DNA of 64,000 bases from Halobacteroidaceae bacterium (GTDB lineage Bacteria > Bacillota > Halanaerobiia > B1SED10-174). The stretch spans positions 1,043 to 65,042 of the forward strand of contig PWGV01000093.1 of assembly GCA_003554585.1 (NCBI GenBank). The letters run 5' to 3'. Below the pieces are notes generated by a model. It was not told the DNA's origin. It was given only the letters and a program-made list of their open reading frames with translations, and made no database searches. The position numbers and the translations under genes were made by a program. Position 1 is the first letter of the stretch. Each line of letters opens with the position of its first letter. Shown piece after piece: positions 46,190 through 63,372 of the stretch.

Positions 46190-47764
46190 TCAGTCAAGGT
46201 TGTGTTTTTTCATTTTGTAGTAAAGATTGCGTTCAGAAATCCCCATTTTTTCTGCGGCTTTTTTCCGGTTACCCTCGCTGGTGGAGAGGGCCCTGCGCAA
46301 AACCTCTCTTTCTTTTTTCTGCAGGGCTCCTTTCAGATCCAGTATTCCATCCGCAGAAATCTCTTCCTCTCCGACCTGAATATCAGCAAGTTTGTAAGCC
46401 AGTCCCAAAGCCGGAAAGTGTTGAGCTTCGAGAACTTCGGAATTATAATTAACTTCTATCATTGCTCGCCCAACCACATTCTCCAGCTCGCGAACATTTC
46501 CCGGCCAGTCATATTCCTGCAGGAGTTCCAGCGCTTCCGGAGCACATTTTTTTACCATTCGCCCATATTCCTGGTTAAAGCGCCTGATTAAGTGATTTAC
46601 CAGTTTAGGGATATCAGTTTTCCTTTCCCGTAGAGGGGGAAGATAAATCGGAAAAACATTAAGACGATAATATAAGTCCTCGCGGAAATTCCCTTTTCGA
46701 ACTTCTTCTTCGAGGTTGGCGTTCGTTGCCACAATGACCCTTACGTTAACATTGACGGGGTCAGTACCTCCTACTGGAGTAAATTCTTTCTCCTGGAGCA
46801 CACGCAGGAGTTTAGCCTGCATCTGAAAATCCATCTTGGCGACCTCGTCCAGGAAAATCGACCCATTATTTGCTTCAGCAAATAATCCCTTTTTGCCCCC
46901 AGGGCGGGCTCCGGTGAAAGCCCCTTCCTCGTAACCGAATAATTCGCTTTCAATCAAAGTATCGGGAATAGCTGGGCAGTTAACCCGGATAAACTGGGCC
47001 TTACTCCGGGCGCTTTCATTATGAATCGCGTGCGCAAAAAACTCTTTTCCTGTTCCACTCTCTCCCCTGAGCAAAACTGTAACCGGGGTCTGGGAAGCTT
47101 TTTTAGCCTGTACTATTACTCTTTTTATCCCCGGGCTTGATCCAATAATATCTTCAAAAGCATACTTGGCCCGGAGCCGTCGGAGCATCCAGTTGGCCCG
47201 ATCCAGTTCATCGGATAATTTCTTCAGCTCCGAAATATCATGGATTACTCCCACACTTCCCCGCAACTTTCCGTTTATTATAATCGGGGCAACATTAACA
47301 ATTACATCCCTTTTCTGGGGGCCAACTTTAAGCGGAACTCCGGTTACAGGTTTACCGGTTTGTAAAACCTTGTAGTGCATGCTCTCCCCTTCAGCTATAT
47401 CAACTGTCGCCGGACGACCAATAACGTCTTTCTCGGTAAGTCCAGTAATTCTGGTATAAGCAGGGTTTATTAAAAGTCCCCGTCCGTTTTCATCAACCAC
47501 GGAAATGGCATCCTGGGCGGAATCAATAATTGCCTGGAGCATCTGTAAACTCTCCCCCTGCAGGGGGTCTGAGTTAAGGATGGCAAGAAATTTCTGGAAA
47601 GGGGGCGGCAATTCTGCTTCATTACCTCCCGTTTGGAGTTTAATTACCAGATCATAATTTTTATTTTTTACTTCTTCCCGGTAAACCTCAATACCCCTCA
47701 AAAGCTCAAGTTGCTGGATAAAGCTCTGCCAACCCTGAAGGGATTGGGGTATCAAAACTCTCAT
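46190..47764 (-). CDS. bkdR: sigma54-dependent activator, BkdR-like (PAS-AAA+-HTH)
   Basis: PAS DAISVVDENG..ATVDIAEGESMH, GESGTGKE, GAFTGA, HTH; upstream of the ptb/ldh/buk genes as in the B. subtilis bkd locus. Confidence 0.85.
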   Translation of the reverse strand: MRVLIPQSLQGWQSFIQQLELLRGIEVYREEVKNKNYDLVIKLQTGGNEAELPPPFQKFLAILNSDPLQGESLQMLQAIIDSAQDAISVVDENGRGLLINPAYTRITGLTEKDVIGRPATVDIAEGESMHYKVLQTGKPVTGVPLKVGPQKRDVIVNVAPIIINGKLRGSVGVIHDISELKKLSDELDRANWMLRRLRAKYAFEDIIGSSPGIKRVIVQAKKASQTPVTVLLRGESGTGKEFFAHAIHNESARSKAQFIRVNCPAIPDTLIESELFGYEEGAFTGARPGGKKGLFAEANNGSIFLDEVAKMDFQMQAKLLRVLQEKEFTPVGGTDPVNVNVRVIVATNANLEEEVRKGNFREDLYYRLNVFPIYLPPLRERKTDIPKLVNHLIRRFNQEYGRMVKKCAPEALELLQEYDWPGNVRELENVVGRAMIEVNYNSEVLEAQHFPALGLAYKLADIQVGEEEISADGILDLKGALQKKEREVLRRALSTSEGNRKKAAEKMGISERNLYYKMKKHNLD

Positions 47765-48423
47765 TATTCTTTTCCTCCTACCGCCCAGGGAGGTTGCAGG
47801 TGAATCTCCACAGGTAATATATCCCCGGGAAGGTCAACCTCGGGAATTAAATCAGCCAAAACAGCCGTAAACTTAATTGGTATGCCCTGCTCCCGGGCCA
47901 GGGTTTCAACTCGATTGTAGCCCTCTTCTACTTCCCCCCGAGATGTTTCCGCTCCAAGATTCCCGTTAGCAACAAAATGCGTAACCTCAAGGCGAGAAGC
48001 ATTTTCAATGGCTTCTTTCAATTCGAGCAGGTTCTTTTTATTTGAAGAAAAAGGCCTATAGGGATTAATGACCATAATCAATTCGTAATTTCCCGGGGTG
48101 AGGTATTGGCCCAGGCTACCCAGGACCCTGGCTCCATCATCATCACCCCCTACATCTAAAACCGCTTCCCGTTCCGGGGCCTGAAGAGCTCTGTAGATTT
48201 CGGAGGTAATAATCGGTAGATCGGCCTGAGCCATATCCCTGGGATAAATTAAATCAATTCCCGCCTTTTCTAAGGTTTTTTCTGCTTCTCTAAGCCGAAA
48301 ATACGGTTTTACAATATCAAGATCCACAAGAAAAGGCGGTTTTTCCCTGGAAAGAGCATAGTTAATACTGATTTCGGTTTTTCCACTGCCAAAATTACCC
48401 GCAAAAATTTTAATCCGAGCCAT
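47764..48423 (-). CDS. uncharacterised P-loop ATP-binding protein (MinD/CobQ-like fold)
   Basis: FAGNFGSGKTE Walker A, VDLDIVKPYFRLRE, LDVGGDDDGA; stop overlaps the bkdR start (TAATG). Confidence 0.85.
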   Translation of the reverse strand: MARIKIFAGNFGSGKTEISINYALSREKPPFLVDLDIVKPYFRLREAEKTLEKAGIDLIYPRDMAQADLPIITSEIYRALQAPEREAVLDVGGDDDGARVLGSLGQYLTPGNYELIMVINPYRPFSSNKKNLLELKEAIENASRLEVTHFVANGNLGAETSRGEVEEGYNRVETLAREQGIPIKFTAVLADLIPEVDLPGDILPVEIHLQPPWAVGGKE

Positions 48424-48785
48424 AATTTCTCTCCTTCCCCTTATTAATTTCTATTTCCAGACTGATTTCCCTCTTTAGCAAAACAGCCTTTCCTGTGGGA
48501 AAAACTATTATGGGAAGATTGGGAATTTAAATAAAAAGCGATCCATTTCCTCTAAATTTCCCCTTATTTTAATTAACCCTCTCAAGGTAAAAAACCAGTC
48601 CCCTACTTCTTATTCCCCGATTGCTCAAAAACACAGGTCTTGCAATTTTGCTTAACAATTGCACAGTGTTTTTTTTAATTAATGTCTATATTTATCCTTT
48701 TTTTGCTAAATCAATATAAAAAGAGGATTTCTTTAAGATTTTAGCGAAACGTTTAAAGAACAGTAAAATAAAAAGGAGGATCTTT

Positions 48786-50390
48786 ATGGTGAAAAGAAAA
48801 TCTGTAATAATGTTGTGTCTCGTCTTCCTGCTGGCCCTGGGTTTATCCCTAAACGCCTCGGCCACACGGGTTCCTGAATTTACCATACTCACAACAACTG
48901 AAGGCTATGATCCGATCCGTTTCGAAGCAGCCTTTTTAATTCAGGATGCCTGGGCAGCTCTTGGTATCCAGGTCGATGTTCAGCCCCTGGAATTCAGCAC
49001 CCTGATTGACAGGTTCTACAACGAACAGGACTTTGATATTGCTATTGTCGGTTGGTCGGGCCGGGTTGACCGCCTCGATCCCCAGCATTTCCTGGGAACA
49101 CTCCATTCCGGTCAGACTGATGTCGGTGGGAACAACCCTGGAGGCTATGAAAACGAACGCTACGATGAACTTTTCGAAATGCAGGCCCGGGAATTTGATC
49201 CTGATCAGCGGCGGGAATATGTCCTGGAAATGCAAAAGGTTGCCATGGAAGAACAACCCCTGAGTATTCTTTTCTACAGGGATGAAGTCCTTGCGTACAA
49301 TGTAAATACCTTCGCGGGTTATGTTCCCATGGCCGGAGAGGGCCTCTACACCGAGTGGCTTCCATTTGATGTTTATCCCGTTGGGGACTCCAACACCCTG
49401 ACCATCGGAACCAGCCAGGAACCGGACAATATTAACCCCCTCGATTCAACCACTGTCTGGGGCTGGAAATTCATGCGCCTCTACTACGACAAACTGGTTC
49501 GCTTATCCCCGGATATTGAACCACTTCCCTGGGCAGCAGAATCAGTAGAAGCCTATGACGAACAGACTATCGAAGTTGTTATTCGGGACGACATGCTTTT
49601 CCACGACGGGGAGCCTGTAACTGTAGAAGACGTTAAATTCTCCTACGATTACATGGTGGAACAGGACTTTGCTTACTTCCGTCCCTTCTACGATCCCCTG
49701 GAAGAGGTTATTATTATCGATGACCAGACCCTGCACTTTGTCCTCAAAGAACCTACCTCTTTCTTCATTACAGTAACCCTGAGCCAGATCCCCATCCTTC
49801 CCAAGCACCTCTGGGAAGACATCGAGGAGGCCAATCAGCTCGCCCCTGAAGATGTTCCCACAATTGGTAGCGGCCCCATGAAGTTTGACCGCTACGACCG
49901 CGGGGAATACAAGCGGCTGGTCAAGTTCGAAGATTACTTCTTGGCTGATGAAATTAATATTGAAGCAATTGACTATATCATATACGCTGACGCCGAAGGA
50001 ACCTATACCGGTATGGTCACTGGTGAAGCTGACATGACTGCCTGGAGATTGGAACCCGCTCAAATTAATCTCGCCGAGCAGGAAGATCACCTGGAAGTTG
50101 TCAGTGTTCCCGACTTTGGTTACTACCACATGACCTACAATACCCGCCTGCCCGCACTGGATGATCCTGATTTCCGCCGGGCAATTGCCCACTCCATCCC
50201 CCACGAGACCTTGGTCAATGTTCTCCTGGATGGCCGTGGCGAGCGGGGAACTTCAATAATTGCGCCTGTAAACACCTTCTGGCATAATCCTGACGTTCCC
50301 ATCTTTGAATACAGCCTTGAAACCGCACGGATCCTGCTGGAGCAGGCCGGTTACTGGATAGACGATGACGGCCGGCTTAATCTGCCGTAA
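48786..50390 (+). CDS. family 5 (DppA/OppA-type) extracellular solute-binding protein, circularly permuted
   Basis: Signal peptide ending ASA. The usual C-terminal block (IQDAWAALGIQVDV..NPGGYENERYD..PDQRRE) comes before the usual N-terminal block (TLTIGTSQEPDNINP..FHDGEPVTVEDVKFS..GSGPMK..RRAIAH..ARILLEQAGY). Confidence 0.92.
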   Translation: MVKRKSVIMLCLVFLLALGLSLNASATRVPEFTILTTTEGYDPIRFEAAFLIQDAWAALGIQVDVQPLEFSTLIDRFYNEQDFDIAIVGWSGRVDRLDPQHFLGTLHSGQTDVGGNNPGGYENERYDELFEMQAREFDPDQRREYVLEMQKVAMEEQPLSILFYRDEVLAYNVNTFAGYVPMAGEGLYTEWLPFDVYPVGDSNTLTIGTSQEPDNINPLDSTTVWGWKFMRLYYDKLVRLSPDIEPLPWAAESVEAYDEQTIEVVIRDDMLFHDGEPVTVEDVKFSYDYMVEQDFAYFRPFYDPLEEVIIIDDQTLHFVLKEPTSFFITVTLSQIPILPKHLWEDIEEANQLAPEDVPTIGSGPMKFDRYDRGEYKRLVKFEDYFLADEINIEAIDYIIYADAEGTYTGMVTGEADMTAWRLEPAQINLAEQEDHLEVVSVPDFGYYHMTYNTRLPALDDPDFRRAIAHSIPHETLVNVLLDGRGERGTSIIAPVNTFWHNPDVPIFEYSLETARILLEQAGYWIDDDGRLNLP

Positions 50391-50404
50391 GATTAAAAAC
50401 AAGC

Positions 50405-50428
50405 GGGGAGGGAGGGGACTCCCTCCCC
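50405..50428 (+). terminator. intercistronic stem-loop after the SBP gene
   Basis: GGGGAGGGAG-GGGA-CTCCCTCCCC perfect 10-bp stem with a weak pyrimidine tail. Confidence 0.65.
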
Positions 50429-50472
50429 TCTCTCTTCTATTCCAAATTTAAAATTAGAACCGGAGGGAGCTT

Positions 50473-51462
50473 ATGGGTAAAAGAAAATTTATTTTTCGGC
50501 GCCTTCTGCAAATGGTAGTAACTTTTTTGATAATCCTGACCGGGCTCTTTTTCGTTTTTCGCCTGACCCTACCTGACCCAACTGCTGCCCTGGTTATGGA
50601 AGGATTATCTGCAGAAGCCCAGGCCATGGTTCGAGCCCGTTTTGGCCTTGACCGGCCCCTGTGGCAACAGTATTTTATCTACCTGGGTAACTTTTTCCAG
50701 GGTGAATTCGGCATGTCCTTTCATTACCGATCGGCGATCGCCCCAATTGTCTGGGAAAAGCTTTTAAACACCCTGGTATTGATGTTCCCGGCAATAATTG
50801 TTTCCTACTCTATTGGTCCCCTGCTCGGGGTAATATTATCCTGGCGGAGAGGGACAAGAGTCGAATTCAGTGGTATTGTGGGGGGACTTTTTCTTCGTTC
50901 AGCTCCAGTTTTCTGGACGGGGATGATTTTCATTATGGTTTTTGGTATCTGGCTGGGAATTCTTCCAACCAGCGGAATGAGAACACTACCTTATGAAGCC
51001 GCTCATTTCTGGGATAAAATTTTCACTTTTGATTTCCTCTGGCATTTAATGCTGCCCGCTTTTACTATTGCCATCTACTACGTGGCATTACCAATGCTAA
51101 TCATGCGCAATACCATGCTGGAGGTAATGGGTGAGGATTTTATTGAATTATGCCAGGCCAAAGGTTTAAATGAACGAACAATAATGTATAAACACGCTGC
51201 CCGCAACGCCCTGCTGCCTGTTGTAACCCAGGCGGCTATCACCGTCGGCCTGGCTGTTGGAGGGCAGGTTGTGGTTGAAGTTGTCTTCTCCTGGCCCGGC
51301 CTGGGGCGGGAAATAATTCAGTCTGTAAGAACCAGTGACTTCCCTATGGCCCAGGCTTGCTTTATGTTAATGGCCGGAATGGTTATGGGAATGAATTTCC
51401 TGGCTGACCTGGTTTACGGCTACCTTGATCCCCGGGTTGTTTACCAGAAAGGGGGCAAATAA
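50473..51462 (+). CDS. ABC peptide transporter permease (DppB/OppB)
   Basis: FGLDRPLWQQY..GEFGMS, EDFIELCQAKGL EAA loop, HAARNALLP, EVVFSWPGLG, LDPRV. Confidence 0.95.
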   Translation: MGKRKFIFRRLLQMVVTFLIILTGLFFVFRLTLPDPTAALVMEGLSAEAQAMVRARFGLDRPLWQQYFIYLGNFFQGEFGMSFHYRSAIAPIVWEKLLNTLVLMFPAIIVSYSIGPLLGVILSWRRGTRVEFSGIVGGLFLRSAPVFWTGMIFIMVFGIWLGILPTSGMRTLPYEAAHFWDKIFTFDFLWHLMLPAFTIAIYYVALPMLIMRNTMLEVMGEDFIELCQAKGLNERTIMYKHAARNALLPVVTQAAITVGLAVGGQVVVEVVFSWPGLGREIIQSVRTSDFPMAQACFMLMAGMVMGMNFLADLVYGYLDPRVVYQKGGK

Positions 51463-51463
51463 T

Positions 51464-53227
51464 ATGAGCAAACAAAGCAGCCGCTGGAAACAATACCAGC
51501 CTTATTTTCAATCAATGAAGGCACCTTTTAAAGCAATCTGGGCCGATCCCCTGGGGCGACCGGGATCAATTTTATTTCTCCTGGTTCTCTTTGTGGCAAT
51601 TTTTGCTCCCCTCCTCGCAACCCACGACCCCCATGAAATGAACCAGCGTGTGGAAGGAACAGCTGCAACTTTTATTGAGGGGCAATGGGAAAGAATGCGG
51701 GTAATTGGTTACAAACCATTAACCGCAACTGCGGTCATCTCCCCGGGTGAAAGTTTTGCTGTCGGTAGGGAAGGAACCATTCTTCACTTCGATGGTAACC
51801 GGTGGAATGAAGAAGAATCGCCTGTAAATACCTCCCTGCTCTCAGTTGACTTCTTTTCTTCTGAGTTCGGTTTTGTTGTAGGAGAAAATGGGGTAATTAT
51901 CAAGTATGATGGCCTTTCCTGGGAACAGTTGGAGAGTCCCGTAGAGATAGCACTTAATGGGGTTGCAGTCCCAGCCCCTGACAAAGCGATCGCCGTTGGC
52001 GAAGACGGAACAATTCTCAGCTGGGACGGAAACTCCTGGAGCATTCTTGATAACCCTGCCACCCGAGATTTAATGGCCATTAATATGGTCAACCCCAATT
52101 CGGGAGTAATCGTGGGAGACAGGGGAACCATCCTTCATTACCAGGATGGAGAATTTGTTAATCCCTCTTACCGGACTTTTATGGATGGGACCTTCCGCAG
52201 GTTAAATGCCGTTGCCCTTTCCGAGGAGGGCTTTGGTTTTGCCACCGGAGAAAGGGGTGAAATCCTCGGATTTGATGGGGAAGACTGGTATAACATGACC
52301 AGTCCTGAAAGTCGGGAGCTAACAGCAGTAGGAATTGTTGGTCCCGAAGAAGCTTATATCCTTGGGATTCGCGGAATCATTCTTAAATTTGACGGTGAAA
52401 ACTGGACAAGGCTCGGTCTGGGTTACCACCGCAGTTTTCGCGGGCTGGATATTGAGGACGGTTACGGTTTTGGAGTTGGGACTGATCCCTATATCAACGA
52501 ATTATCCCCTCCCACCTGGGAGCACCTTTTTGGAACCACCCACCTGGGAAGGGATATCTGGAGCCAGGTAATGTACGGTTCGCGGACTGCGCTAATTGTG
52601 GGAATCGTCACCGCCCTTATTGTTAATATTATCGGGGTGGTTATTGGCTTAACCTCGGGTTATTTCCGGGGGCGGGTTGATAATATCCTGATGCGCATAG
52701 TTGACATTATGTACGGTCTTCCGCTGGAACCCTTTGCCATTATCCTGGTTTTAATTTTCCGGCCCAGCCTTTGGATTATTATCCTGGCAATTGGGCTTTT
52801 AACCTGGAGAACAAATGCCCGGATTATTCGCTCCCAGGTCCTTTCCCTGGTTGAGCGCCCCTTTATTAAAGCTGCCCGGGTAGCCGGAGCAAGTAATTTA
52901 CGAATAATTCTGGTTCACATCGCCCCCAATGTCCTTCCCCTTGCCTTTTTGCAGCTCGCCGTAGCAATTGGCTATGCAATAACAGCAGAAGCGACCCTTA
53001 GTTTCCTGGGCCTTGGCCCACCAAGGTTATACAGCTGGGGCACAATACTGCACGCTGCCCGTCTGTCGGGGGCCTGGCGAACCGCCTGGTGGTGGGTAAT
53101 CCCCCCCGGTATATTCATAAGTTTGACAGTGGTATCAGTATTCCTGATTTCCAGATCACTTGAAGTTCTTACTAATCCACGCCTGAGAGGAGGTAGTACC
53201 CGTGCTCCTAGAAGTAAAAAATCTTAA
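51464..53227 (+). CDS. ABC peptide transporter permease (DppC/OppC) with inserted beta-propeller
   Basis: TM1-HDP, then ~39-aa repeats (AVG..G.IL.FDG..W), then PPTWEHLFGTTHLGRDI..RPFIKAARVAGAS..HIAPN..LSFLGLG. Confidence 0.93.
   Translation: MSKQSSRWKQYQPYFQSMKAPFKAIWADPLGRPGSILFLLVLFVAIFAPLLATHDPHEMNQRVEGTAATFIEGQWERMRVIGYKPLTATAVISPGESFAVGREGTILHFDGNRWNEEESPVNTSLLSVDFFSSEFGFVVGENGVIIKYDGLSWEQLESPVEIALNGVAVPAPDKAIAVGEDGTILSWDGNSWSILDNPATRDLMAINMVNPNSGVIVGDRGTILHYQDGEFVNPSYRTFMDGTFRRLNAVALSEEGFGFATGERGEILGFDGEDWYNMTSPESRELTAVGIVGPEEAYILGIRGIILKFDGENWTRLGLGYHRSFRGLDIEDGYGFGVGTDPYINELSPPTWEHLFGTTHLGRDIWSQVMYGSRTALIVGIVTALIVNIIGVVIGLTSGYFRGRVDNILMRIVDIMYGLPLEPFAIILVLIFRPSLWIIILAIGLLTWRTNARIIRSQVLSLVERPFIKAARVAGASNLRIILVHIAPNVLPLAFLQLAVAIGYAITAEATLSFLGLGPPRLYSWGTILHAARLSGAWRTAWWWVIPPGIFISLTVVSVFLISRSLEVLTNPRLRGGSTRAPRSKKS
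51653..52486 (+). repeat. protein-level repeat array: six full and one split ~39-aa beta-propeller blades
   Basis: AVGREGTILHFDGNRW, VVGENGVIIKYDGLSW, AVGEDGTILSWDGNSW, IVGDRGTILHYQDGEF, ATGERGEILGFDGEDW, ILGIRGIILKFDGENW. Confidence 0.9.
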
Positions 53228-55463
53228 AACCTACTACCAAGTGGATGATATTGTAGTCAAGGCACTGGATGGAGTTTCTTTTAAACTGAAAAAAGGAGAT
53301 AACCTGGGGCTTGTTGGGGAAAGTGGCTGTGGAAAAACAACTGCCGCCAAATCAATCAACAGGATCCTACCTCCCAACGGGGGAATTGTTGACGGCCAGG
53401 TTATTTTCAAAGGCAAGGACCTGGTCCCCCTCAATAATAATCAGATGAACAAGGTTCGCTGGAAAGAAATTTCCATGGTTACCCAGAGTGCCATGAACGC
53501 CCTGGACCCGGTTTATAAGATCGGGGACCAGATTACTGAAGCTATCCATACGCACGAAAATATGAGTAATAAAGAAGCTTTAAAGCGGGCCAAAGAGTTA
53601 TTTGGGATGGTTGGACTGGAGAAAAAGCGTCTCAGGGATTTCCCCCATCAGCTATCGGGGGGAATGAAACAGCGGGTTGTAATCGCAATGGCTCTTGCTC
53701 TTAGCCCGGACCTGGTAATCGCCGATGAGCCAACAACCGCCCTGGATGTGGTTGTCCAGGATGGGATTTTAAAACAATTTATTGATCTGCAGAGCCAGAT
53801 CCAGTCTTCAATAATCCTCGTTACCCACGATATCTCGGTTGTGGCTGAAATCTGTCAGCGGGTTGCAGTTATGTACGCGGGAAAAATAATGGAACAGGGC
53901 ACAACCAGGGAAATTTTCAAAGATTCCTTCCACCCATATACCCTGGGCTTACTGAACGCCTACCCCACCCTCGAAGCTGCCAAAGGCGATATTATCTCCA
54001 TTCCCGGATCTCCCCCGGACCTGGCAACAGATATTACCGGCTGTCGGTTCCGGGAACGCTGTCCCTTCAGTACAGAAAAATGCAGGGAAGAACCTGATCC
54101 TGTTGAAGTTGCTCCAGGTCACGAAGTTCTCTGCCACTACCCGGAAAAAGTCGAAACCTTCCGGAAAGAGTCTACCAAGACTTCAACCTGGCAGGGAGAA
54201 ACACCTCCACCGAGCAAAAAAGGAACTGTTGGAGAAAAAAATGCGCTCGAAATTCAGGGTTTGAAAAAATATTTCCCCATCAAACAAAGTTTCTTCGGAG
54301 GCAAAAAAACAATTCTGAGGGCTGTTGACGGTGTAGACTTTACTGTAAAAGAAAGAGAAATCGTAGGCCTGGCTGGAGAAAGCGGCTCAGGAAAGAGTAC
54401 TATCGGTGAACTCCTTGCCAACCTGCAAAACACCACGGACGGGAAAATTCTCTACCTGGGCAAGGAAACTGAATTGCAAAAGAAAAAACACGATAAGGCT
54501 TTTCGGCGCAATTTCCAGGTTGTTTTCCAGGATCCTTATGAAACTCTTAATCCTCGTTTTACTGTATTAAATACAATCATGGAACCTCTTGTGATTCATA
54601 AAATCGGCAAGGATTATGAAGACCGGCTGGAAAGGGTTAAGAAAGCCCTACAATTAGCCGAGCTTTCCCCTCCTGAAAACTTCCTTTCCCGTTTCCCCCA
54701 TCAGCTCTCTGGAGGGCAAAGGCAAAGAGTGGCATTAGCCCGAGCTATTGTCCTTGAACCCAAATTCATAATAGCTGACGAACCAGTTTCCATGCTTGAC
54801 GTTTCCATTCGGGCCGGAATTTTAAACCTGCTAAAACGCATGCGAGATGAACTCGGAGCTTCCCTTATTTACATTTCACACGACCTGGCCACAATCCGTT
54901 ATATCTGCAATAGAACTGCTATTCTTTACCTCGGCCGGATTATGGAAATTGGTGAAACGGAAAAAGTAATCGCCCAGGCTGCACACCCTTATACCCAGAT
55001 GCTTTTAGCCGCTGTTCCCATACCTGACCCGGATACAAACCGGGAACGGGTTGATCCCCGGGGAGAAATCCCCGATCCCATTGACATGCCCAATGGTTGC
55101 CGTTTTCACCCCCGCTGCCCCAAAGCTTTTGCCCGCTGTGGCTGGGAAGGTAAAGACGTCCGTAATCTCCTGGAAAATCCTGAGTTTGAAGATCTGGCAA
55201 AACCTTTTGCCGATGAAATCTCGGGTTACGAAATTGAAGGGCTGGACCTCATTGTCAAAATGCAGTGGAAAGGGGAAACTCGCTGGGAAGAATTGAAAAA
55301 AACCCTGGAAAAAATCATGAATAATAATAATTCAACTATGCTGGAAACTATGACAGAAATGAAGGTTGAAGATACTGGGTTGCGTATTTCTTTCCCTCCC
55401 AAAGAAGACCCCCAGATTAAAAACATCGATTCTGATCATGATGTTGCCTGTTATCTTTTCTAA
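53202..55463 (+). CDS. fused DppD-DppF ABC ATPase with two Cys-rich C-terminal domains
   Basis: GESGCGKT/LSGGMKQR/DEPT and GESGSGKST/LSGGQRQR/DEPV; CRF..RCP..C..C motif after each NBD. Confidence 0.95.
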   Translation: MLLEVKNLKTYYQVDDIVVKALDGVSFKLKKGDNLGLVGESGCGKTTAAKSINRILPPNGGIVDGQVIFKGKDLVPLNNNQMNKVRWKEISMVTQSAMNALDPVYKIGDQITEAIHTHENMSNKEALKRAKELFGMVGLEKKRLRDFPHQLSGGMKQRVVIAMALALSPDLVIADEPTTALDVVVQDGILKQFIDLQSQIQSSIILVTHDISVVAEICQRVAVMYAGKIMEQGTTREIFKDSFHPYTLGLLNAYPTLEAAKGDIISIPGSPPDLATDITGCRFRERCPFSTEKCREEPDPVEVAPGHEVLCHYPEKVETFRKESTKTSTWQGETPPPSKKGTVGEKNALEIQGLKKYFPIKQSFFGGKKTILRAVDGVDFTVKEREIVGLAGESGSGKSTIGELLANLQNTTDGKILYLGKETELQKKKHDKAFRRNFQVVFQDPYETLNPRFTVLNTIMEPLVIHKIGKDYEDRLERVKKALQLAELSPPENFLSRFPHQLSGGQRQRVALARAIVLEPKFIIADEPVSMLDVSIRAGILNLLKRMRDELGASLIYISHDLATIRYICNRTAILYLGRIMEIGETEKVIAQAAHPYTQMLLAAVPIPDPDTNRERVDPRGEIPDPIDMPNGCRFHPRCPKAFARCGWEGKDVRNLLENPEFEDLAKPFADEISGYEIEGLDLIVKMQWKGETRWEELKKTLEKIMNNNNSTMLETMTEMKVEDTGLRISFPPKEDPQIKNIDSDHDVACYLF

Positions 55464-55471
55464 TAATCAAT

Positions 55472-55500
55472 AAAGGCGGCCTTTCGGCCGCCTTTTTCTT
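55472..55500. terminator. bidirectional terminator between the ABC operon and spo0A
   Basis: AAAGGCGGCC-TTTC-GGCCGCCTTTTT between convergent genes. Confidence 0.88.
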
Positions 55501-55501
55501 T

Positions 55502-56284
55502 TTAACCGGCTTGGGTTTCTAGCCGCAGTTTGTCTGCTATTTTGGCAATAAATTGAGAATTTGTTGGTTTCCCTGATTTTTCCTCAACGGAATTCCCAAA
55601 GATGCTTTTCATTTCTGCAAAATTCCCCCGCTCCCAGGAAACCTCAATTGCGTGCCTGATAGCCCTCTCTACCCGGGAAGGGGTAGTATTATATTTTTTG
55701 GCTACGGTGGGGTATAATTCTTTTGTTACAGCACCAATTAATGCAATTTCTTCAATTACCATTGTAATGGCATCCCGTAGGTACAGGTATCCCTTTATAT
55801 GAGCAGGAACACCAAGTTGATGCATAATATTGGTTACCCTTACTTCAAGATTATTACTGCTTTTTTTAAATCCGGTTTTTTTGAAATTTGTTTTTTGGGG
55901 GCTGGAATCCTTTAACTGCCTGATCCTTTTGCCCACTATCTCCAGGTCAAAAGGCTTTAAAATATAGTAATCAGCACCCAATTCCACAAACCGCTGGATA
56001 ACGTCCTGGTGTCCAAATGAAGTAAGCATAATTACCTTTAAGTCAGGGTCTCGGCCTTTTTCATTCAATTCTTCCAGGACTCCAATGCCATCGAGATAAG
56101 GCATAATAATGTCAAGGAGTAAAACATCAGGAGGATTCCTTTCCATTAATTCCAAGCATTTAGCACCATCATAAGCAACACCTATCAGTTCTAAATCGTC
56201 CTGTTGGGAAAAAAATTCCTCGACCATTTCGCAAAAATCCAGGTTGTCATCGGCAAGTAAAACCTTAATTTTTTCTTGAATCAT
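55502..56284 (-). CDS. spo0A: response regulator Spo0A
   Basis: Receiver [11 protein letters not shown] plus output [42 protein letters not shown]. Confidence 0.98.
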
Positions 56285-62730: not shown

Positions 62731-62758
62731 TACTTTTCCCCCCAAAAAATAATTCCAG

Positions 62759-63338
62759 GTGCATCGGCGGTAATAGACCGGATAAATGCTGCGGCTTAGG
62801 TCCAGCAGGCTTTCCCAGTGATCTCCAAAAGGTTGCCCTTTTTGGCGGTTTCCCTTTAAATCACTCTGCAATGTTGCCATAAGCAGGGCTGGATTACCAC
62901 TCAGACCACACTTCAATCCCCGGTCTATCCCCACAGCGGGACAGCCTAGAAGTTTTCCTTGACAGCCTTAGTTACTCCCTAGCTTCTTTTGCAGTAAGGG
63001 TTTCAGAGGTAAAGGAACTACTTCCTAGGGCCCCTGGGAAGTTGAACTTAATACCCTCCTCTCCCCTTACCACTCAAAGCAGGCTACACTGCAGCTACCT
63101 TGCGGTTTCTGCAGGTTCCCCAGATACCAGCTCCCGACTTGTATCCGGGCCTCCGCGGAATCAGGGTCTACGCCCACATGCCATTGTGGATCGCCCCGAA
63201 TTCCTTAACTCCCAGCTATGACCCCCGACTGGGCGTCAGTAGCCATAACCAGGAACTTCATCGATGTGCCCTTTGACGGATTTTTAGGCCCGCCTTCAAA
63301 AGTACAAAGCTGACTAGAATACTGCACCGCCGATGCGC
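62759..63338 (-). ncRNA. ole: OLE (ornate, large, extremophilic) RNA
   Basis: Minus strand reads GGTGCAGTATTCTAGTCAG..TTTTGAAGGCGGGCCTAAAAATCCGTCAAAGGGCACATCGATGAAGTTCCTGG, matching OLE as I recall it. The 5' GCATCGGCGGT pairs with the 3' ACCGCCGATGC; length ~580 nt; canonical ispA-ole-oapA-dxs context. Confidence 0.93.
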
Positions 63339-63343
63339 AATTA

Positions 63344-63372
63344 ATTATAACATAACCGCTTATTACAAGCAA
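63344..63372 (-). promoter_or_regulatory. sigmaA promoter for ole-oapA
   Basis: TTGCTT-17bp-TATAAT with extended -10 TG, ~6 nt upstream of the OLE 5' stem. Confidence 0.75.

Follow-up and report, generated by a model that had tools for sequence, protein, structure and literature searches.

A peptide/nickel-type ABC importer with a circularly permuted binding protein, a propeller-bearing DppC-like permease and a fused ATPase, found in at least ten phyla

In a window of 64,000 nucleotides (the whole stretch of DNA analysed here, from contig PWGV01000093.1 of the Halobacteroidaceae bacterium assembly GCA_003554585.1), the list of open reading frames (ORFs) contains four consecutive plus-strand ORFs that encode an intact ATP-binding cassette (ABC) importer of the peptide/nickel type (Opp/Dpp/Nik, PepT), composed of a binding protein, a DppB-like and a DppC-like permease and a DppD-DppF ATPase (Table 1). 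It belongs to a known transporter family and departs from it structurally in three ways, a combination that is apparently undescribed: the binding protein is circularly permuted, the DppC-like permease carries a seven-bladed beta-propeller, and the two ATPases are fused, the second with an additional domain in its cysteine motif. The cassette forms one distinct, self-contained subfamily of single origin in at least ten phyla. It arose inside a larger clade of permuted family-5 binding proteins with ordinary translocators, and the propeller, the DppD-DppF fusion and the tail insert were all added on the branch leading to the subfamily. We consider this identity and evolutionary history of the importer very probably correct. 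A first-pass annotation of the window, made by a model from the letters and an ORF list, had already proposed the permutation, a propeller of ~280 amino acids (aa) in the first extracytoplasmic loop of DppC and fused ATPases with ~85 extra aa in the second cysteine tail, and all three were recovered here, the propeller with ~285 aa between the first two transmembrane helices (TM1 and TM2) and the extra domain with ~87 aa.

The binding protein is matched by PF00496 (SBP_bac_5) at an expectation value (E) of 6.1e-67 in two stretches, the best of which aligns residues 246-529 with positions 2-284 of the 368 in the profile. In alignment with AppA of Bacillus subtilis (PDB 1xoc), residues 204-529 correspond to chain positions 23-349 (independent E-value, i-E, 3.8e-28) and residues 32-179 to positions 362-502 (i-E 5.5e-08), so that the last third of the canonical protein stands first. 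The segment at 48879..49322 contains E39 and the motif W90-S-G-R93-V-D95-R96-L-D-P, and the linker that follows it has five family-invariant residues (G184, E185, Y188, W191 and P193). All 120 homologues among the matches listed are collinear with the window protein. Among the PDB matches listed none of 60 was collinear, nor was any of 60 for a distant permuted relative, and since these were all non-collinear no solved structure with the permuted topology was found.

In the DppC-like permease Pfam recognises OppC_N (47-74), PSII_BNR/Ycf48 and BPD_transp_1 (404-588). The PSII_BNR match, which covers the profile partially, reaches 44 bits in the permease (cut-off 27) and 44-49 bits over scans that include the insert alone. 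Residues of this protein are numbered 1-587 from ATG 51464, the more likely start, which lies one base past the DppB stop and is favoured because a 91%-identical homologue (P0001) starts there. An AlphaFold2 model from a 57-sequence alignment (mean predicted local distance difference test, pLDDT, 89.9; predicted template modelling score, pTM, 0.74) has a cytoplasmic N-terminal tail and TM1 (about 31-51), followed by 28 strands arranged as seven four-stranded blades (about 57-343), the last of which is completed by the first two strands together with the last two; a conserved ...GTDPY...HLFGTTHLGRD... segment then leads into the DppC membrane domain. With Foldseek the membrane part resembles E. 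coli DppC (8z1y_B, 40% identity) and the insert resembles Ycf48 (2xbg/5ojr; probability 1.00, target TM-score 0.66, 18-20% identity). As a passage in the study of E. coli Dpp describes the TM1-TM2 region of DppC as periplasmic (PMC12136057), the propeller is placed outside the cytoplasmic membrane. Five arginines of blades 4-7 (R220, R245, R264, R284 and R323) are at least 90% conserved in the family. The mean top-residue frequency of the propeller is 0.41-0.55 vs 0.82 for the membrane domain, and the family alignment shows variable blades with lineage-specific insertions. Pfam detected neither a catalytic motif nor a hydrolase family in the permease or its insert, and outside the permeases the insert comes closest to secreted multidomain proteins that carry Big_2 or type-IX-secretion sorting domains.

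The ATPase contains two ABC_tran and two oligo_HPY domains, and Walker A, signature and Walker B motifs, read from the translation, are complete in both halves (model pLDDT 87.4, pTM 0.86). A four-cysteine motif, the predicted ligand set of an iron-sulphur (Fe-S) cluster, stands after each ABC domain, as in other peptide/nickel ATPases. In 32 ATPase sequences C281, C287, C294 and C311 of the first half are invariant, as are C633, C639 and C750 of the second, with C646 at least 90% conserved. In E. coli, according to a passage in PMC12136057, Cys284/290/297/315 of DppD (spacing 5/6/17) and Cys293/299/306/323 of DppF (5/6/16) coordinate [4Fe-4S] clusters. Here the first half is spaced 5/6/16 and the second 5/6/103, which means that ~87 residues are inserted between Cys3 and Cys4. 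The insert is modelled as helix-helix-strand-strand-helix-helix-strand-strand and has a mean top-residue frequency of 0.37; Pfam at E up to 5 assigned it to no known family, giving chance-level matches only, and its best ESM Atlas neighbour (score 0.88) lies under the useful range. The DppD proteins of the sister clade end in the same ...ETW... tail that forms the linker between the two halves.

The DppB-like permease has BPD_transp_1_N and BPD_transp_1 domains, matches E. coli DppB (8z1v_A) at E 5.2e-52 and has a strongly conserved scoop region (LPDPTxALVxEGLS). The features of peptide/nickel importers are thus found throughout the cassette: a family-5 (cluster C) binding protein, with the order of its segments swapped, and two BPD_transp_1 permeases, one with the DppB scoop region and the other with the OppC_N transmembrane helix.

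To follow the cassette, one genome for each of 185,579 species was scanned; 143 relatives of the binding protein were confirmed, and the best 80 loci were kept, their ORFs called and compared with the four window proteins. The carriers belong to at least ten phyla, among them Halanaerobiales and other Bacillota, Synergistota, Atribacterota, Thermotogota, Actinomycetota (Nitriliruptoria, Micromonosporaceae), Spirochaetota, Chloroflexota and Deinococcota, and gammaproteobacteria and alphaproteobacteria of the genera Halomonas, Billgrantia, Vreelandella, Franzmannia, Natronospirillum, Saccharospirillum, Paracoccus, Pararhodobacter, Roseinatronobacter, Aliihoeflea and Pelagibacterium. The loci hold 75 DppB proteins and 76 complete binding proteins, all of which are permuted, with 55-66% identity between those of Bacillota and those of other phyla. 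Every complete DppC-like ORF (65/65; 558-632 aa) has the propeller, aligned in one piece from residue 45 or before to residue 585 or beyond, with no loss at 43-87% identity, and all 55 complete ATPase ORFs are fused and contain the tail insert, the alignment reaching residue 750 or beyond. The remaining genes are incomplete at contig edges (permeases: 8 cut, 7 absent; ATPases: 6 cut, 19 absent), and the complete genes of the 80 loci include no exception to the pattern, in agreement with the co-occurrence of the three proteins in homologous operons that the first-pass annotation would lead one to expect. The method also detects ordinary systems, since canonical opp operons (about 511, 313, 317, 332 and 335 aa) were recovered next to the cassette in L030-L032. 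On these spirochaete/Atribacteria contigs the canonical five-gene opp/dpp operon lies directly upstream and forms a small peptide-uptake island with the cassette.

Most of the 80 loci belong to metagenome-assembled genomes (MAGs) or cultured genomes with record titles that indicate a soda-lake or saline origin, a habitat bias that may partly reflect the choice of the 80 loci closest to a query of saline/alkaline origin; the sequencing runs that contain the window's stretch are soda-lake, salt-lake or sediment metagenomes, with no RNA runs among those listed. A second complete operon (539, 328, 592 and 757 aa) is present in the host genome on contig C150 (L009; 2662-9442, minus strand), between GntR/FCD regulator and amidohydrolase genes on one side and ATC-hydrolase-like and nitroreductase genes on the other, and a third permuted binding-protein gene, cut by the contig end, lies on contig C115 (L010; 2850-3431, plus strand) 3' of an aldehyde:ferredoxin oxidoreductase gene. 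The three copies suggest several specificities in one genome. A Nitratireductor megaplasmid carries the same cassette under generic RefSeq names (ABC transporter substrate-binding protein, permease, permease subunit, ATP-binding protein). The DppB of L041, from a MAG titled Halorhodospira sp., is near-identical to those of L036 and L044 (Spirochaetaceae/Spirochaetales MAGs; end branches 0.003-0.011), so that either the transfer is very recent or the contig was mis-binned.

The permutation extends far beyond the cassette. When 1.84 billion cluster representatives were searched with HMMER, 37,828 matched at E up to 0.001; of the best 150, which were read, about 138 are collinear across the junction (29-64% identity), 8 show the canonical arrangement (in two stretches, of which the best starts at about query residue 200) and 4 are fragments that do not permit a judgement. 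A profile of 31 permuted proteins, run against 301 genomes of the host's phylum, gave full-length collinear matches in at least 21 of them, and 20 places were fetched. All 20 operons contain a permuted binding protein. In 18 of them one collinear match spans the junction, and for L126 and L130 the match starts at query residue 114-121; Pfam confirmed the permutation in all four of the fetched loci tested (best stretch about 231-568 vs profile 1-285). In none of the 20 is the ATPase fused, and in all of them the match of the DppC-like ORF is confined to the membrane part, the ORF having about 290-340 aa unless its start is over-called. In L136-L141, the loci in which both ATPase genes were detected, D and F are separate proteins of 322-351 aa. 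Most second-tier loci have a single ATPase ORF after the permease, some with a second on the opposite strand, and none was detected in L126, L127, L130 and L134. The cysteine spacing of the F proteins in the sister clade (L137-L140) and in L141 is 5/6/17, except in L140 (5/6/22). When the whole permease was run against the 301 genomes, the host genome alone had the propeller form; seven others matched with the membrane part only (341-348 to 575-579, in frames of 296-356 aa).

In a FastTree phylogeny of 100 DppB proteins, which leaves out the host's own paralogue, the 76 propeller-linked rows form one clade (Shimodaira-Hasegawa-like support 98) with short internal branches. Its sister is a group of four propeller-less operons (support 96), whose permeases have no counterpart of the propeller stretch, a 5-residue loop standing in its place, and the other permuted and canonical systems fall outside. 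The reading that fits is that the permutation came first, that the translocator was then changed on one branch, and that the cassette finally spread across phyla. The suggestion of the first-pass annotation that all the changes co-evolved does not hold in this form, given that the permutation is commoner (~138/150 representatives) and occurs with canonical DppC and unfused ATPases: the co-occurrence stands for the three translocator changes only, as the permuted binding protein works with ordinary translocators elsewhere.

Two observations concern distant permuted relatives. P0378, a 3441-aa "ABC transporter substrate-binding protein" of a Thermoplasmata archaeon MAG, contains a permuted module (query 32-534 vs residues 420-917) and three matched stretches in all. 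In the genus coded g16 (genomes G239, G100, G007 and G058; loci L126, L127 and L130), each distant permuted match has one in-frame TGA, the downstream ORFs aligning only from query residue about 114-121; this could reflect upstream read-through, a recoded codon or a broken gene.

Across lineages, the way in which the binding protein is anchored matches the type of envelope. An Omp85/BamA gene is present in the host genome (E 6.6e-41, above the cut-off; a control was positive in diderm genomes only), and the host therefore has a periplasm, in which a soluble binding protein is expected. Among the N-termini of 47 family members, the rows of diderm lineages have ordinary signal peptides; of the four actinobacterial/Chloroflexota rows two have a lipobox, including that of Micromonosporaceae, and two a long acidic N-terminal linker, namely the Anaerolineales row and the Nitriliruptorales row, the latter also with an LTAC motif recognised by eye outside the window of the regular expression. 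One spirochaete row also has a lipobox. The proposal of the first-pass annotation that the propeller tethers a non-lipidated binding protein has therefore a weak rationale.

Its other suggestion, that the importer feeds amino-acid fermentation, drew on the adjacent gene cluster, and this spo0A/bkd neighbourhood is common only to the three closest relatives (L011-L013). In the 119 neighbouring ORFs from 37 loci every Pfam family is found five times at most, and as no neighbouring gene is conserved the cassette is autonomous. Neighbours specific to one clade share no theme (in Halomonadaceae, aroE, hemF and dprA; in three Halanaerobiaceae loci, a disulphide reductase fused to a glutaredoxin). 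A gamma-glutamyltranspeptidase gene adjoins the cassette in six loci, five alphaproteobacterial and one unclassified (L053, L069, L070, L073, L082 and L086; median distance ~30 bp, mostly convergent), and no other neighbour gives a hint of the class of substrate, which here would be gamma-glutamyl peptides or glutathione.

The ligand itself reads as peptide-like or amino-acid-derived, with altered recognition, as far as residue alignments can tell. In DppA an arginine (precursor R383) and an aspartate (D436), also cited as R355 and D408, bind the peptide termini. Aligned through Yersinia pestis DppA (5f1q) and counted by hand, R383 corresponds to the invariant E39 of the window protein and D436 to D/E95, flanked by the invariant R93 and R96. 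The same two DppA residues are named in a passage of PMC12136057 as contacts of the DppB scoop loop, D436 touching R42 of DppB. In the DppB-like permease E41 of the E. coli protein is kept as E43, whereas R42, unlike in E. coli Dpp, has no counterpart; a charge swap at the scoop loop was therefore rejected, as E43, the absent R42 and E39 make no simple compensating pair. The specificity groups compared were DppA, OppA, NikA, GsiB, SapA, CntA and Opp1-5. The ATPase passes several ATPase-model cut-offs (dipeptide ATP-binding subfamily, CntD/CntF, NikD/NikE), which is uninformative on substrate.

Among characterised systems, E. coli DppABCDF (8z1v-8z1z) and Mycobacterium tuberculosis OppABCD/DppABCD (8j5q-t, 8wd9-b) belong to the same transporter family and share its fold, and with E. 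coli Dpp the scoop region of DppB and, in the first ATPase half, the same kind of four-cysteine [4Fe-4S] spacing are held in common. However, their binding proteins have the canonical order and their ATPases are separate chains, the solved DppC/OppC chains have 273-289 aa without a propeller, and the Cys3-Cys4 gap of E. coli DppD/DppF is 16-17 residues, vs 103 here. Two ABC domains in one chain are also known from GsiA and YejF (NCBIfam E 2.1e-145 and 3e-126), but the scores (485.6 vs 1077 bits and 422.1 vs 834 bits) lie far under the equivalog cut-offs and the tail insert, matching no Pfam family, is a further difference; the separate D and F of the sister operons, together with the tree, show that the DppD-DppF fusion originated independently of theirs inside this subfamily. 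The sister and outer permuted clades (L137-L141 and L122-L136) have the same permutation, with binding proteins 41-43% identical in the sister clade, but their DppC lacks the propeller and their ATPases are unfused (~320-350 aa). Ycf48/HCF136 (2xbg, 5ojr), a photosystem II assembly factor, is likewise a seven-bladed PSII_BNR propeller with conserved arginines, but is a free lumenal protein of oxygenic phototrophs acting on D1, whereas here the propeller is inserted in an ABC permease of non-phototrophs; the host has spo0A and a fermentative gene cluster.

The suggestion of the first-pass annotation that the architecture is a distinct importer subclass proved sound in that the subclass is real and conserved, its RefSeq names are generic and no description was found. 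Searches of full-text literature, in which most subscription journals are missing, turned up no account of a family-5 binding protein permuted in nature or of an OppC/DppC with a propeller, and the PDB contained neither. Opp/Dpp importers are textbook systems, and the cryo-electron microscopy structures of 2024-2025 show no additional DppC domain, permuted binding protein or insert in the Fe-S tail. The large and apparently unrecognised clade of naturally permuted cluster-C binding proteins bears on annotation and on PF00496, which splits them, and is relevant to biosensor engineering, where permuted forms are made by hand. As the sister operons lack the propeller, they provide a clean natural experiment on an extracytoplasmic accessory domain in a type-I importer. 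A whole transporter cassette is common to at least ten phyla, in genomes mostly from saline/alkaline sources, and cultured carriers (Halomonas, Billgrantia, Vreelandella, Franzmannia, Natronospirillum, Aliihoeflea, Pararhodobacter, Halanaerobium and a Nitratireductor plasmid) make experiments feasible.

In the cycle that we propose, the periplasmic binding protein would capture a small peptide-like or amino-acid-derived ligand and dock on the DppB- and DppC-like permeases, and ATP at the two complete sites would open the pathway as in a normal type-I cycle. The propeller, beside the docking site, would provide an extra surface for docking or retaining the binding protein through its conserved arginine cluster, with contacts that could survive high pH and high salt. 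Arginines are charged at pH 10, at which lysines and peptide amino groups are not. Such a role would be analogous to that of the MalF P2 loop of E. coli MalFGK2-MalE, a large periplasmic domain of a membrane subunit that contacts the binding protein; P2 lies in the TM3-TM4 loop, has a non-propeller fold and belongs to another transporter family, so that the comparison is one of analogy only. In the closest solved fold, according to passages in PMC11449106, an arginine-rich patch of Ycf48 binds acidic residues of D1 and the C-terminal tail of D1 lies in a groove, the groove-held tail being also described in a passage of PMC8909930. A complex prediction for the binding protein (28-534) and the propeller (52-352), both given as alignments, scored 0.02 (mark 0.32) and speaks neither for nor against binding. 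We regard the docking or retention role of the propeller, drawn by analogy, as plausible and still short of probable, and towards the explanation as a whole, comprising the identity of the importer, its history and the docking cycle, we lean slightly.

Several points weigh against it. The propeller is under weaker constraint than the membrane domain, as its lower conservation indicates, and docking as such needs no propeller, since the permuted binding proteins of the sister clade work with a plain DppC. Co-occurrence within one clade partly reflects shared ancestry and does not by itself demonstrate functional coupling. The DppB tree was made with FastTree only, and the canonical outgroup is not monophyletic in it. 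Neither the binding protein nor the permeases reach NCBIfam equivalog cut-offs, all 11 binding-protein matches falling far under them (best Opp4A, 119.5 bits vs a cut-off of 650), and recognition probably differs from that of DppA, as R383 aligns with Glu39.

A bolder version would make the importer a new mechanistic class of type-I system, in which the propeller is an obligatory second receptor, the tail insert a signal coupler and the whole a soda-lake cassette; taken jointly, we find this rather doubtful. If it were true, the arginine patch, charged at pH 10 in molar salt, would clamp the acidic permuted binding protein or capture peptide C-termini, the domain inserted in the second Fe-S motif would tie transport to a redox or ligand signal from the cytoplasm, and the cassette would be a habitat-specific, horizontally traded solution to nutrient uptake in soda lakes.

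Alternatively, the propeller might itself capture ligands, either peptides (for example with free C-termini or acidic) or a polymer, at the surface of the membrane and hand them to the binding protein or directly to the pathway. The D1 tail held in the groove of Ycf48 offers a precedent, the five conserved arginines could bind carboxylates, and the secreted multidomain relatives of the insert point the same way; but a dedicated and highly conserved binding protein is always present (complete in 76 of the 80 loci and cut by contig ends in the others), the blades vary between lineages and a catalytic motif or hydrolase family was not detected with Pfam, which makes this role unlikely. Less probable again is a service to the envelope, as an anchor or spacer to peptidoglycan or the outer membrane, as an aid to assembly or stability at high salt and pH, or as a sensing surface: the prevalence of soda-lake and saline sources, the low constraint on the blade sequences and the occurrence of the family in lineages with very different envelopes would agree with it, yet diderms and monoderms alike have kept the propeller despite their different envelopes, which speaks against a partner peculiar to a single type of envelope, and the arginine cluster suggests one specific partner. 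That the additional features are a neutral legacy of a single successful mobile cassette and serve no particular role is improbable; all carriers descend from one ancestor in the DppB tree and both insert and blades are poorly conserved, but the 65 and 55 complete genes, drawn from at least ten phyla and 43-87% identical, show no loss of either feature, and the frames are intact, the models confident, and the specific arginines and Cys750 conserved. Least probable of all is the joint reading of the first-pass annotation, with co-evolution, a propeller tether and the feeding of fermentation, for despite the perfect co-occurrence inside the subfamily and the bkd-like cluster next to the operon in the host, the permutation predates the other changes and occurs without them, the host periplasm and the lipobox and linker forms of monoderms speak against the tether, the neighbourhood is kept only in L011-L013, and its co-evolution and fermentation parts are already largely refuted.

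The coordinates of the operon and its parts are collected in Table 1. The stem-loop behind the binding-protein gene is possibly an attenuator or a stabiliser of the mRNA within the operon. On the plus strand of the 5' intergenic stretch a consensus scan found no convincing sigma-70-type site, and Rfam, run over the whole window, detected no riboswitch or leader upstream of the operon.

Table 1. Genes and sequence features of the importer cassette, in positions of the window.
Feature	Position	Strand	Details	Basis
Intergenic stretch 5' of operon, divergent from minus-strand cluster	48424..48785	+	ribosome-binding site AAAGGAGG	
Binding-protein gene	48786-50390	+	534 aa	
Signal peptide, signal-peptidase-I type	48786..48863	+	residues 1-26 (...NASA/TR), without lipobox	read from translation
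Segment corresponding to C-terminal third of canonical binding proteins	48879..49322	+	AppA 362-502	alignment
Linker joining old C-terminus to old N-terminus	49323..49394	+	residues 180-203 (24 residues)	
Segment corresponding to N-terminal two-thirds of canonical binding proteins	49395..50372	+	AppA 23-349	
G+C-rich stem-loop 3' of binding-protein gene	50405..50428	+	10 pairs	consensus scan only
DppB-like permease gene	50473-51462	+	329 aa	
DppC-like permease gene, as called from TTG	51425-53227	+	600 aa	
DppC-like permease gene, from ATG 51464	51464-53227	+	587 aa	
Seven-bladed Ycf48/BNR-like beta-propeller, TM1-TM2 loop	51632..52492	+	residues about 57-343	model, Foldseek, Pfam, conservation
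ATPase gene	53202-55463	+	753 aa; 26-nt overlap with permease gene	
DppD-like half	53202..54146	+	GESGCGKT, LSGGMKQR, ADEPTTALD; four-Cys C281/C287/C294/C311	
Linker between halves, derived from DppD C-terminal tail	54147..54242	+	W330 invariant	
DppF-like half to Cys3	54243..55142	+	GESGSGKS, LSGGQRQR, ADEPVSMLD; C633, C639, C646	
Inserted domain, Cys3 to Cys4 (C750) of second four-Cys motif	55143..55436	+	about 87-100 aa	
Terminator-like hairpin, bidirectional, between ATPase gene and convergent spo0A	55472..55495	.		consensus scan

Gene calls agree with the flanks named in the first-pass annotation: spo0A (55502-56284, minus strand) lies downstream and convergent, and upstream, divergent on the minus strand, are genes for a sigma-54 activator and a Leu/Phe/Val dehydrogenase and butyrate-kinase-like and phosphotransbutyrylase-like genes. 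Its statement that the operon is the only plus-strand block in 64 kb is borne out with the exception of an unassigned 163-aa ORF at 14-505, which has no Pfam match; the GC skew of the window is positive only at 50-54 kb. A 219-aa ORF (47764-48423, minus strand) without a Pfam match has a P-loop-like N-terminus (GNFGSGKT), its start overlaps the stop of the sigma-54 activator gene, and the same pair lies upstream of the cassette in L012. The only Rfam family detected in the window is a full-length OLE (ornate large extremophilic) RNA at 62751-63346 on the minus strand (RF01071, 488 bits, E 3.5e-140).

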